Below are positions 4,154 through 6,473 of a stretch of DNA of 6,473 nt, piece after piece. The position numbers and the translations under genes are program-made. The stretch comes from a virus (Duplodnaviria; Heunggongvirae; Uroviricota; Caudoviricetes), in IMG/VR virus record IMGVR_UViG_3300029841_000297. One strand, 5' to 3'. The first letter of the stretch is position 1. Each line of letters opens with the position of its first letter. The notes beneath the pieces were generated by a model. The model made no database searches, had not been told where the DNA came from, and saw only the letters and a list, made by a program, of their open reading frames with translations.

Positions 4154-4211
4154 TGTTCAACCCTAATTGCCGCTAACCGTATATAGTTAGCGGCGGTTAT
4201 GAGATATAGCT

Positions 4212-4415
4212 ATGAGCAGCTTATTTTTAACCGAAGATGAATTGCTAATATTAACGGGCTGCAAATATGCAAGCCACCAGCGAAAATGGTTAATGGAAAA
4301 CGGGCTTCCGTTCTATACCAATCGTAGTGGCAAACCGATTGTCAGCCGGGATCTATTTACCTGCAATAAAACTTTACCACCACGCGAGGTAGAGCCGAAT
4401 TTTGGTGCGATCTGA
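4212..4415 (+). CDS. xis: Excisionase-like small DNA-binding protein, 67 aa (DUF4224-type, found immediately upstream of prophage integrases)
   Basis: Position directly upstream of int, with its stop overlapping the int start (ATGA-type junction at 4413..4417). The pattern LTxxELxxLTGxKxxxxQxxWLxxNGLPF is typical of this family (recalled). Confidence 0.7.
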   Translation: MSSLFLTEDELLILTGCKYASHQRKWLMENGLPFYTNRSGKPIVSRDLFTCNKTLPPREVEPNFGAI

Positions 4416-5440
4416 TGGGAAGACGAAGGAAAAATCCTGAACACGAAAAATTACCTCCAAATGTATACCCAAATAAATATAGTTATGTATGGAAACCAAC
4501 ATCCAGAGAATCTGTCACACTAACCGCCATCAAGGATGGTTTAGCTGCTTTATGGAAAAAGTATGAGGAAACTGTAAATAATCGCGATCGTGCAATGACA
4601 TTCGGTCGCTTGTGGGAAAAATTCCTCGCCAGCGCCTGTTACAGTGACCTTAGTCCAAGAACACAAAAAGATTATCTGCAACATCAAAAAAAGTTGCTTG
4701 CCGTATTCGGTAAGGTACCAGCGGATTCCATAAAACCAGAACACATCCGTCGATACATGGACAAAAGAGGGGAGCAGAGTAAAACGCAAGCCAACCATGA
4801 AAAAAGCAGTATGTCCCGTGTTTACAGTTGGGGGTATGAGCGAGGGTACGTCAAGGCTAACCCATGTGCAGGTGTAAGTAAATTCAAGGCCAAAAACCGC
4901 GAACGATATGTAACCGACAAAGAATACCAGGCAGTATTAAGCGTTGCACCTCTTCCTGTTTTTATCGCAATGGAAATTGCCTATCTGTGTGCAGCGAGGG
5001 TTTCCGATGTGTTATCGCTGAAATGGGAACAGATTGGAAACGACGGGATATTCATCCAGCAAGGGAAAACCGGAAAAAAACAGATAAAAGCATGGAGTCC
5101 ACGATTACAGGCAGCGATCGAAAAAGCAAAACAGTTACCAAAATCTGCCTATGTGATCAGCAATCAATACGGCAACCGATATATGTACAAAGGCTTTAAC
5201 GAAATGTGGGTAGAAGCAAGAAATCGTGCTGGAAAAATTTCAGGTATTTTAACCGACTTCACCTTTCATGATCTGAAGGCGAAAGGAATTTCAGACTATG
5301 AAGGAAGCAGCCGGGATAAGCAACTTTTCTCTGGTCACAAAACCGAAGGGCAAGTGCTAATCTATGACAGGAAGGTTAAAGTTTCACCAACACTTGATGT
5401 CCCGTTACCTGAAAATATTCCAAGAAAATATTCCAAGTAA
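4415..5440 (+). CDS. int: Lambda-family tyrosine integrase, 341 aa, with N-terminal arm-binding domain
   Basis: N-terminus MGRRRKNPEHEKLPPNVY resembles lambda Int MGRRRSHERRDLPPNLY. Catalytic-region matches: AARVSDVLSLKWEQI (Arg I), QQGKTG (Lys), FHDLK (box II), GHKTEGQVLIYDR (His and Tyr nucleophile) versus lambda RVGDLCEMKWSDI / SKTG / FHELR / GHKSDTMASQYRDD. Lies next to a tRNA gene. Confidence 0.93.
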   Translation: MGRRRKNPEHEKLPPNVYPNKYSYVWKPTSRESVTLTAIKDGLAALWKKYEETVNNRDRAMTFGRLWEKFLASACYSDLSPRTQKDYLQHQKKLLAVFGKVPADSIKPEHIRRYMDKRGEQSKTQANHEKSSMSRVYSWGYERGYVKANPCAGVSKFKAKNRERYVTDKEYQAVLSVAPLPVFIAMEIAYLCAARVSDVLSLKWEQIGNDGIFIQQGKTGKKQIKAWSPRLQAAIEKAKQLPKSAYVISNQYGNRYMYKGFNEMWVEARNRAGKISGILTDFTFHDLKAKGISDYEGSSRDKQLFSGHKTEGQVLIYDRKVKVSPTLDVPLPENIPRKYSK

Positions 5441-5447
5441 TTCCAAG
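5414..5447. repeat. Direct repeats AAATATTCCAAG x2 (5413..5424, 5426..5437) plus a third TTCCAAG (5441..5447) spanning the int stop codon; candidate arm-type integrase binding sites
   Basis: Perfect 12-bp direct repeat at 13-bp period and a third heptamer copy 10 bp on, about 45 bp from the tRNA 3' end. Confidence 0.35.
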
Positions 5448-5492
5448 TGTGATTTTTGTCACTGACTTAATGATGTGTAAGTGATTGAATTT

Positions 5493-5540
5493 TGGCGGAG
5501 AGAGGGGGATTTGAACCCCCGGTGGAGTTGCCCCCACTCC
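5493..5540. other. Probable att core / prophage-host junction overlapping the 3' portion of tRNA-Ser (attL in lambda convention); extent approximate
   Basis: The integrase is transcribed toward the tRNA and ends 52 bp from its 3' end. Tyrosine-integrase prophages at tRNA genes carry a core identical to the tRNA 3' segment. The second copy needed to delimit it is outside the window. Confidence 0.45.
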
Positions 5541-5582
5541 GGTTTTCGAGACCGGTCCGTTCAGCCGCTCCGGCATCTCTCC
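5493..5582 (-). tRNA. serU: tRNA-Ser (anticodon CGA), 90 nt, class II tRNA with long variable arm
   Basis: Reverse complement reads GGAGAGATGCCGGAGCGGCTGAACGGACCGGTCTCGAAAACCGGAGTGGGGGCAACTCCACCGGGGGTTCAAATCCCCCTCTCTCCGCCA: 7-bp acceptor stem, anticodon loop CU-CGA-AA, T-loop GGTTCAAAT, 3' GCCA. Adjacent to mtfA as in E. coli (recalled gene order). Confidence 0.95.
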
Positions 5583-5675
5583 GTTCAGATGGTTGCCATG
5601 ATGCCAGGAAATTTGGCATTTTAACAGTCCCTGTCCGTGCAATTTTGTTCAAGTGACGAGTTTGCGAGCAAAACG
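5583..5675. promoter_or_regulatory. Divergent intergenic region expected to carry the tRNA-Ser and mtfA promoters
   Basis: Lies between the 5' ends of the two divergent genes. On the minus strand a TAAAAT -10-like hexamer (5619..5624) sits upstream of the tRNA; hairpin ATGCCA-GGAAATT-TGGCAT at 5601..5619. No clear -35. Confidence 0.3.
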
Positions 5676-6473
5676 ATGATTAAGTGGCCCTGGAAAGTAC
5701 AAGAATCAGCACATCAAACTGCCCTTCCCTGGCAGGAAGCACTATCGATCCCCCTTTTAACGTGTCTGACAGAACAGGAACAAAGCAAATTGGTCGCTCT
5801 TGCCGAACGTTTTTTACAGCAAAAACGGCTTGTTCCTTTACAGGGCTTTGAGCTGAATTCATTAAGAAGCTGCCGGATAGCACTTCTATTTTGCCTGCCC
5901 GTTCTGGAGTTAGGACTGGAATGGCTGGATGGTTTTCATGAAGTCTTAATTTATCCTGCGCCATTTGTGGTCGATGATGAATGGGAAGACGATATCGGTC
6001 TGGTGCATAACCAACGTATTGTTCAGTCAGGTCAGAGCTGGCAGCAAGGGCCTATCGTTTTGAACTGGTTGGATATACAAGATTCTTTTGATGCTTCTGG
6101 TTTTAACCTGATTATTCATGAAGTCGCTCATAAGCTGGACACCCGTAACGGCGATCGCGCCAGCGGAGTTCCCTTTATTTCGTTGCGTGAGGTTGCTGGC
6201 TGGGAACACGATCTTCATGCTGCAATGAACAACATTCAGGAAGAAATCGAATTAGTTGGTGAGAATGCGGCGAGCATTGATGCTTATGCTGCCAGTGATC
6301 CTGCTGAATGTTTTGCCGTACTTTCTGAATATTTCTTTAGCGCCCCAGAACTTTTTGCTCCTCGTTTCCCTTCATTGTGGCAACGTTTCTGTCAATTTTA
6401 TCAACAAGATCCTTTGCAGAGACTGCATCACGCTAATGATACAGACTCGTTTTCGGCGACGAATGTTCATTAA
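5676..6473 (+). CDS. mtfA: MtfA, Mlc titration factor A / zinc-dependent peptidase, 265 aa
   Basis: Protein [23 protein letters not shown]... with HEVAH metallopeptidase motif; length and sequence match E. coli MtfA as I recall it. The ORF-track frame 5637..6473 begins at an upstream in-frame GTG; ATG 5676 is preferred. Confidence 0.9.

Follow-up and report, generated by a model that had tools for sequence, protein, structure and literature searches.

Gene content of the locus

The window considered here, that is, the whole analysed stretch of 6,473 nucleotides, is the int-proximal (right-hand) end of a lambdoid prophage together with the adjoining host DNA. The prophage is of the Sakai Sp14 type (Sp14 is named CP-933U in strain EDL933) and is inserted in serU, a tRNA-Ser gene, at its 3' end. 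The features of the window are listed in Table 1.

Table 1. Genes, catalytic motifs and candidate recombination sites of the window
Feature	Position	Strand	Basis and remarks
Exonuclease gene, 823 aa	1682..4153	+	Pfam PF16473, 1.4e-67; C-terminal Rv2179c-like 3'-5' exonuclease domain; prophage early region
DUF4224 protein gene, 67 aa	4212..4415	+	Pfam PF13986, 1.9e-15
Integrase gene (int), 341 aa	4415..5440	+	Lambda-type tyrosine recombinase; open reading frame, Pfam, best match lambda Int
Box I, C192-A-A-R195	4988..4999	+	R195 = Arg I (AGG, 4997..4999); C192, TGT, 4988..4990
K218, catalytic beta-hairpin lysine	5066..5068	+	Equivalent to lambda K235; invariant in both alignments (close and distant)
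Box II, H285-D-L-K288	5267..5278	+	CAT GAT CTG AAG; K288 (AAG, 5276..5278) in the Arg II column
H308 (His III) and nucleophile Y317	5336..5365	+	CAC, 5336..5338, and TAT, 5363..5365; alignments
Three tandem AATATTCCAAG / TAATTCCAAG copies, candidate arm-type Int sites	5414..5447	+	Span the int stop codon, beside the att core
att repeat (62 bp, from the 3' part of tRNA-Ser)	5493..5554		blastn within NZ_CP029420.1; distal copy about 40 kb away
tRNA-Ser(CGA), serU, integration target	5493..5582	-	ARAGORN; name serU from the Sakai annotation; 3' end faces int
mtfA, host flank	5676..6473	+	Pfam Peptidase_M90; RefSeq annotation of identical sequence

The gene order, the tRNA gene (serU) and the host flank are all the same at Sp14 in E. 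coli O157:H7 Sakai. The two prophages share the order dicB, exonuclease, DUF4224, int, the position in serU beside mtfA, and an att repeat of 61 or 62 bp, and the Sakai gene in the exonuclease position has the same length as the one in the window. However, the shared early region is only about 90% identical in DNA, and the prophage bodies differ: HK97-type head genes are present in the prophage of the window type (NZ_CP029420.1), whereas Sp14 has lambda-like genes.

The stop codon of the DUF4224 gene overlaps the start codon of int (ATGA). In phages ST64B and ZF40 the gene in this position, immediately upstream of int, is annotated as an excisionase. By analogy, the DUF4224 protein is likely to be a recombination directionality factor. 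Asadulghani et al. noted that the Sp14 counterpart has no DNA-binding motif and doubted its function (PMC2669165).

An identical int gene is called a "frameshifted" pseudogene by PGAP/RefSeq in NZ_CP029420.1 (1137337-1138387, corresponding to positions 48338-49388 of locus L086, our extract from this genome, and to 4415..5465 of the window). The reading frame is intact at 341 codons' worth of protein (341 aa), and both termini agree with those of the homologues. The pseudogene call is probably an annotation artefact.

Integration site and candidate arm-type sites

The genome of E. coli 3385 (NZ_CP029420.1) is identical to the window over positions 4200-5700, and its 40-kb lambdoid prophage is complete and lies between att repeats. 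The tRNA-Ser(cga) gene begins 53 nt past the int stop codon and contains one att copy; the distal copy lies at positions 9385-9446 of L086. The copies agree at 60 of 62 positions. The two mismatches between the tRNA-embedded and the distal copy are G/A and C/T, and the 61-bp repeat of Sakai Sp14 shows the same two differences. A reading of these mismatches as a compensatory pair in a tRNA stem was dropped, as the pairing register was not confirmed by hand.

Candidate arm-type Int binding sites were found beside the att core as three tandem copies of the AATATTCCAAG / TAATTCCAAG motif. More copies of the AATATTCCAAG type occur just inside the other att repeat, at L086 9482-9494 (minus strand) and 9548-9558 (plus strand). 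Judged on the window alone, the statistics of the AATATTCCAAG repeat are weak: two matches are seen where 0.38 are expected, and two are reached in 14 of 200 shuffled sequences. The conserved C-terminal "YSK" of the homologous integrases lies in a low-confidence tail of the structural model. It may be conserved owing to the repeat motif in the DNA rather than to protein function.

Of the 60 related loci that were scanned, 41 have a tRNA gene approximately 50-450 nt downstream of int, its 3' end turned towards int; in 40 of them the distance is at most about 160 nt. In each of these loci the arrangement is convergent, int pointing at the tRNA gene's 3' end. The targets are Ser(cga), Ser(tga), Leu(taa) of the leuZ-cysT-glyW cluster, Leu(caa) and Cys, and among the hosts are Enterobacterales, Aeromonas, Idiomarina and Pseudomonas. 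Several tRNA targets are thus used across dozens of species, and therefore this group of integrases has gone through many separate successful integrations and changes of target. In phage lambda, the attB target lies between gal and bio and is not a tRNA gene.

The integrase and its catalytic residues

The integrase matches the phage integrase family PF00589 (E-value 1.6e-11, 44.7 bits with a cut-off of 27.1, residues 183-317), as well as PF22022 and PF14659. A search against NCBIfam produced sub-threshold Xer matches only and no specific family name. A phmmer comparison with full-length lambda Int (1z1b) has an E-value of 6e-13, and the alignment starts from residue 1 and includes the MGRRR and LPPN.Y motifs. 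The AlphaFold2 model (mean pLDDT 87.1) has three beta-strands at residues 17-38 followed by a helix at 43-59, and a helix at 285-294. Its best match among solved structures is lambda Int in full-length chains (Foldseek E-value 1e-16, TM-score 0.67). Nearly all of the 50 best listed structure matches are tyrosine recombinases (lambda Int, Tn1549 Int, XerA/D/H, IntI, Cre), the exceptions among these 50 being two chains of SroF of phage phi3T. By alignment and by model, the integrase is a protein with predicted N-terminal arm-binding-like, core-binding and catalytic domains.

Five of the six canonical catalytic residues are present (R195, K218, H285, H308 and Y317), and the Arg II position is occupied by K288. 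An earlier note on this DNA had reported a lysine in box II in place of the second catalytic arginine. The codons and the alignment with lambda Int bear this out: phmmer places tfHdLKak opposite tfHeLRsl of lambda, so that K288 falls in the column of R311. The same alignment pairs R195 with R212, K218 with K235 and H308 with H333. The pairing of Y317 with Y342 follows from the spacing, each tyrosine lying nine residues past its histidine, and the MAFFT alignment with lambda gives it too. The residue numbers, codon positions and other five catalytic residues given earlier were all correct.

The similarity to lambda Int (PDB 1z1b, 1z1g, 5j0n) thus covers the three-domain architecture, the fold, the N-terminus and the positions of Arg I, the catalytic lysine, His II, His III and the tyrosine. 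The proteins differ in overall sequence (about 20% identity) and at two sites, lambda having R311 where this integrase has K288, and T209 where it has C192.

Arg II is approximately 99.1% conserved across tyrosine recombinases, and natural lysine substitutions at this position have been noted before (PMC2943603). A survey by Smyshlyaev et al. (2021) described the catalytic pentad as "otherwise strictly preserved" and discussed only deviations at Arg I. The presence of K288 does not exclude the protein from the tyrosine recombinases, since lysine in this column is known as a rare variant in nature and arginine-to-lysine mutants keep activity (PMC2943603).

The rarity of lysine in this column is the one point, and nothing more, that could suggest a sequencing or assembly error, an option that the earlier note had left standing. 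However, at least six independent complete E. coli genomes match the 1,501-nt segment from int to the tRNA gene (window positions 4200-5700) with 100% identity, and at least 80% of the segment is found in 1,092 of the 5,426 complete genomes of this species. The clusters at 90% identity of the two closest proteins contain 1,013 and 2,068 member sequences. Because of the identity in at least six genomes and the large protein clusters, the lysine codon is not a read error, and the probability that we leave to this explanation is practically negligible.

Conservation and descent of the lysine

Close homologues were collected as the 120 best matches of a word-indexed protein search and aligned with the query. 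Lysine occupies column 288 in all 121 sequences (55-99% identity), within the motif FHD[LI]KAK. Their hosts include Escherichia, Salmonella, Klebsiella, Citrobacter, Dickeya, Pectobacterium, Sodalis, Hamiltonella and Gilliamella. Down to 55% identity, none of these 120 homologues has arginine in the column. A comparison with the closest homologues had been proposed beforehand as a check on the earlier reading; it returned the same lysine throughout. Homologues with proven activity, which are considered below, have this lysine too.

An exhaustive phmmer search against 1.84 billion representatives of 50%-identity clusters produced 7,197 matches. The distant set was formed by the 119 long matches (at least 280 aa) among the best 150, with identity of 32-61%. 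Column 288 contains lysine in 80 of these 119 sequences and arginine in 38. The box II consensus of the clade with lysine is FHD[LI]KAKG[IV]SD. A crude neighbour-joining tree was constructed without the box II columns, and the states of column 288 were reconstructed by parsimony. Two changes are required: one replacement of arginine by lysine at the base of a clade of 79 tips (78 representatives and the query), and one reversal from lysine to arginine in a subclade of six members. The pattern is clear, albeit on a crude tree, and points to the lysine being an old, inherited state and not a recent mutation.

The use of the lysine codon was considered in a scan of one genome per species, in which 80 loci were kept from 331 relatives; one of the scan patterns contained the lysine, and thus this set of loci bears on codon turnover and tRNA context, not on invariance. 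The codon is AAA in 44 of the 80 loci, all from different species, and AAG in 36, and the neighbouring codons vary synonymously too. As both AAA and AAG are in use, the residue has been kept through synonymous turnover.

These observations also bear on the possibility that K288 is a recent loss-of-function or hypomorphic mutation (AGG to AAG) that has locked the prophage in the chromosome. In its favour, AAG is one transition away from AGG, the arginine is highly conserved elsewhere, and arginine-to-lysine mutants are ligation-defective (PMC2943603). On the other hand, arginine is absent from the column in the close set, the lysine of the 80 distant representatives has a single deep origin on the tree, both lysine codons are used, and lysine-bearing relatives excise. 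We consider a recent mutation very improbable. The earlier note had also named a lineage-specific variant as a fallback, and this was right, as K288 is fixed across a large clade.

Co-variation with the box I residue

The residue three positions before Arg I (residue 192) varies together with residue 288. It is cysteine in 69 of the 79 lysine-bearing distant representatives and in all 121 close sequences. In 36 of the 38 arginine-bearing distant sequences it is threonine, giving the widespread TGxR motif that is also present in lambda. The counts of residue pairs (192, 288) in the distant representatives are 69 for C,K, 36 for T,R, none for C,R and two for T,K. The subclade of six members that reverted to arginine also regained TGxR; thus residues 192 and 288 switch together at both inferred transitions.

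This is suggestive of a functional coupling between C192 and K288, although two joint switches are not statistically robust. The cysteine could then be a part of the adaptation to lysine. One tentative possibility is that the clade has an undescribed, naturally re-tuned active site, in which the C192/K288 pair would restore or modulate tyrosine activation and religation. We found no literature on coupling of these two residues, nor any literature describing the clade with lysine. The integrase itself is of a known type (Sp14/CP-933U, related to that of ST64B), and the natural occurrence of lysine at this position has been noted previously. What is mildly novel is how large and how deep the clade is, and that Cys192 varies with the lysine.

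Activity of lysine-bearing relatives

The integrase of Sakai Sp14 (ECs_2773) is 97.1% identical to the one in the window, contains the HDLKAK motif and belongs to the same serU site. Circular attP products of Sp14 were detected by PCR and qPCR after treatment with mitomycin C (Asadulghani et al., PMC2669165). The integrase of Salmonella phage ST64B (sb28) is 57.5% identical and also contains HDLKAK. Excision of this phage was measured by qPCR of attP, and it takes place readily in dam mutants and under stress (PMC12455584). The integrase of Pectobacterium phage ZF40 (gp02) is 49.9% identical. Excision or induction is documented for both of these temperate phages, ST64B and ZF40, and their integrases belong to the same clade, with the motif FHDLKAKG[IV]SD; they differ from the window prophage in hosts, partly in att specificity, and in the C-terminal tails of the integrases. 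Among the phages with the HDLKAK-type motif, an induced lysogen was the source of ZF40, and wastewater that of Klebsiella phage KpF5.

The reading of the lysine as a sign of impaired excision, given in the earlier note, is unsupported, as close homologues with the same lysine (Sp14, ST64B) excise. By analogy with these relatives, we infer that this particular copy of the integrase would be active as well.

A deletion of Y24 was observed in the integrase of Sp14 (positions 4398-5420 of locus L005), where YSYVWKP is replaced by YSVWKP in the N-terminal arm-binding region. The window integrase and all other close homologues keep Y24.

The record of Escherichia phage vB_EcoM-606R7 (ON470580.1), which is 99.7% identical, was considered as a possible free excised phage and rejected: the record is partial and holds host genes. 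It runs past the att site into mtfA, tRNA-Asn and genes of the yersiniabactin island. Since host genes extend beyond the att site, it is a prediction of a prophage region and not a packaged genome.

Possible role of K288 in catalysis

The same substitution at the same catalytic position has been studied in Cre (R292K), vaccinia TopIB (R223K) and XerC/D. Cre R292K shows activity in vivo as well as in vitro, but is impaired in ligation (Gibb et al., PMC2943603), as indicated by a build-up of covalent intermediate greater than in every other single mutant of the active site (PMC2943603). Vaccinia TopIB R223K keeps approximately 10% of activity, and ligation defects are seen in the mutants of Cre, vaccinia TopIB and XerCD alike (PMC2943603). 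Hence the earlier statement that a change from arginine to lysine strongly reduces activity stands in part: it agrees with the ligation defects of enzymes adapted to arginine, but not with the activity of Cre R292K and the residual 10% of TopIB R223K (PMC2943603). The engineered mutants have a single change in a site adapted to arginine, and partial activity, whereas here the lysine has evolved, together with a co-varying residue of box I. In this clade, lysine is compatible with the normal lifestyle of temperate phages.

We put at about 0.9 the probability that lysine is native to the Arg II position, with K288 as its catalytic residue, throughout a large and old clade of phage integrases of the lambda type (arm-binding, heterobivalent). 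Judging from the relatives, the enzyme's mode of action is most likely that of an ordinary tyrosine recombinase. In this scheme, Y317 would attack the scissile phosphate, with R195, K218, H285 and H308 in their usual roles. On homology and on the mutant literature, the ammonium group of K288 would stand in for the guanidinium contact to a non-bridging phosphate oxygen.

A variant of this explanation, differing from it in degree only, is that the whole clade is attenuated by design: religation or tyrosine activation would be slow, and the enzymes would be competent for excision yet sluggish. This would agree with the covalent intermediate that Cre R292K accumulates (PMC2943603). It would also agree with the behaviour of Sakai prophages, as circular forms of Sp14 and Sp4 appear only after mitomycin C, being undetectable for Sp14 without it, and the level of circular Sp14 is "significantly lower" than that of other Sakai prophages (PMC2669165). 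From the low level of circular Sp14, a modest intrinsic handicap of the lysine enzyme is possible. However, the authors put the low excision of Sp14 down to a probably non-functional Xis (PMC2669165), and the loss of Y24 from Sp14 Int, not found in the window integrase, could contribute to it. Further, the ready excision of ST64B (PMC12455584), the abundance of the clade and the many tRNA sites that it has colonised speak against a sluggish enzyme, and the co-varying C192 suggests an active site that has been re-tuned. On balance, attenuation of the whole clade seems rather unlikely.

Another possibility is that the missing guanidinium is supplied by a different arginine, the candidate being R319, two residues past the nucleophile. 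There is a precedent in IntDOT, the integrase of CTnDOT, where a downstream arginine replaces Arg I (PMC8138268), and R319 is invariant among the close homologues. On the other hand, many arginine-bearing sisters have arginine or lysine at the R319 position or the next one, as read by eye, and thus R319 is not specific to the clade with lysine. Moreover, the invariance of K288 argues that K288 itself is functional. A substitute arginine is therefore a distinctly improbable explanation.

A lysine in the box II arginine column must not, by itself, be used in annotation to mark an integrase or a prophage as defective. This type of integrase sits at serU in approximately one fifth of complete E. 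coli genomes, the effector-carrying O157 prophage Sp14/CP-933U being one example. For enzymology, the clade is a natural experiment on the role of Arg II, complementing the work on mutants of Cre, Flp and TopIB. The point is a modest one and no surprise, as natural lysine variants and the partial activity of arginine-to-lysine mutants were already reported in 2010.

Lysine at Arg II in a phage of Pseudomonas

A lysine at Arg II was also observed in Pseudomonas phage vB_PaeM-D14A (locus L090; a Citexvirus, phiCTX-like), where box II reads HDLKRRGITD. D14A was considered as a link to the integrase of phiCTX, and this was dropped, as phiCTX is absent among the records listed for the D14A protein (25 of 39). 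The integrases of Dobby, Sirocco and Smp131, which together with D14A are P2-like phages of Pseudomonas and Stenotrophomonas, are 40-73% identical to that of D14A and form one related family with it. After these P2-like relatives, the next-best matches of the D14A integrase are the enteric integrases of the clade with lysine, at approximately 25% identity.
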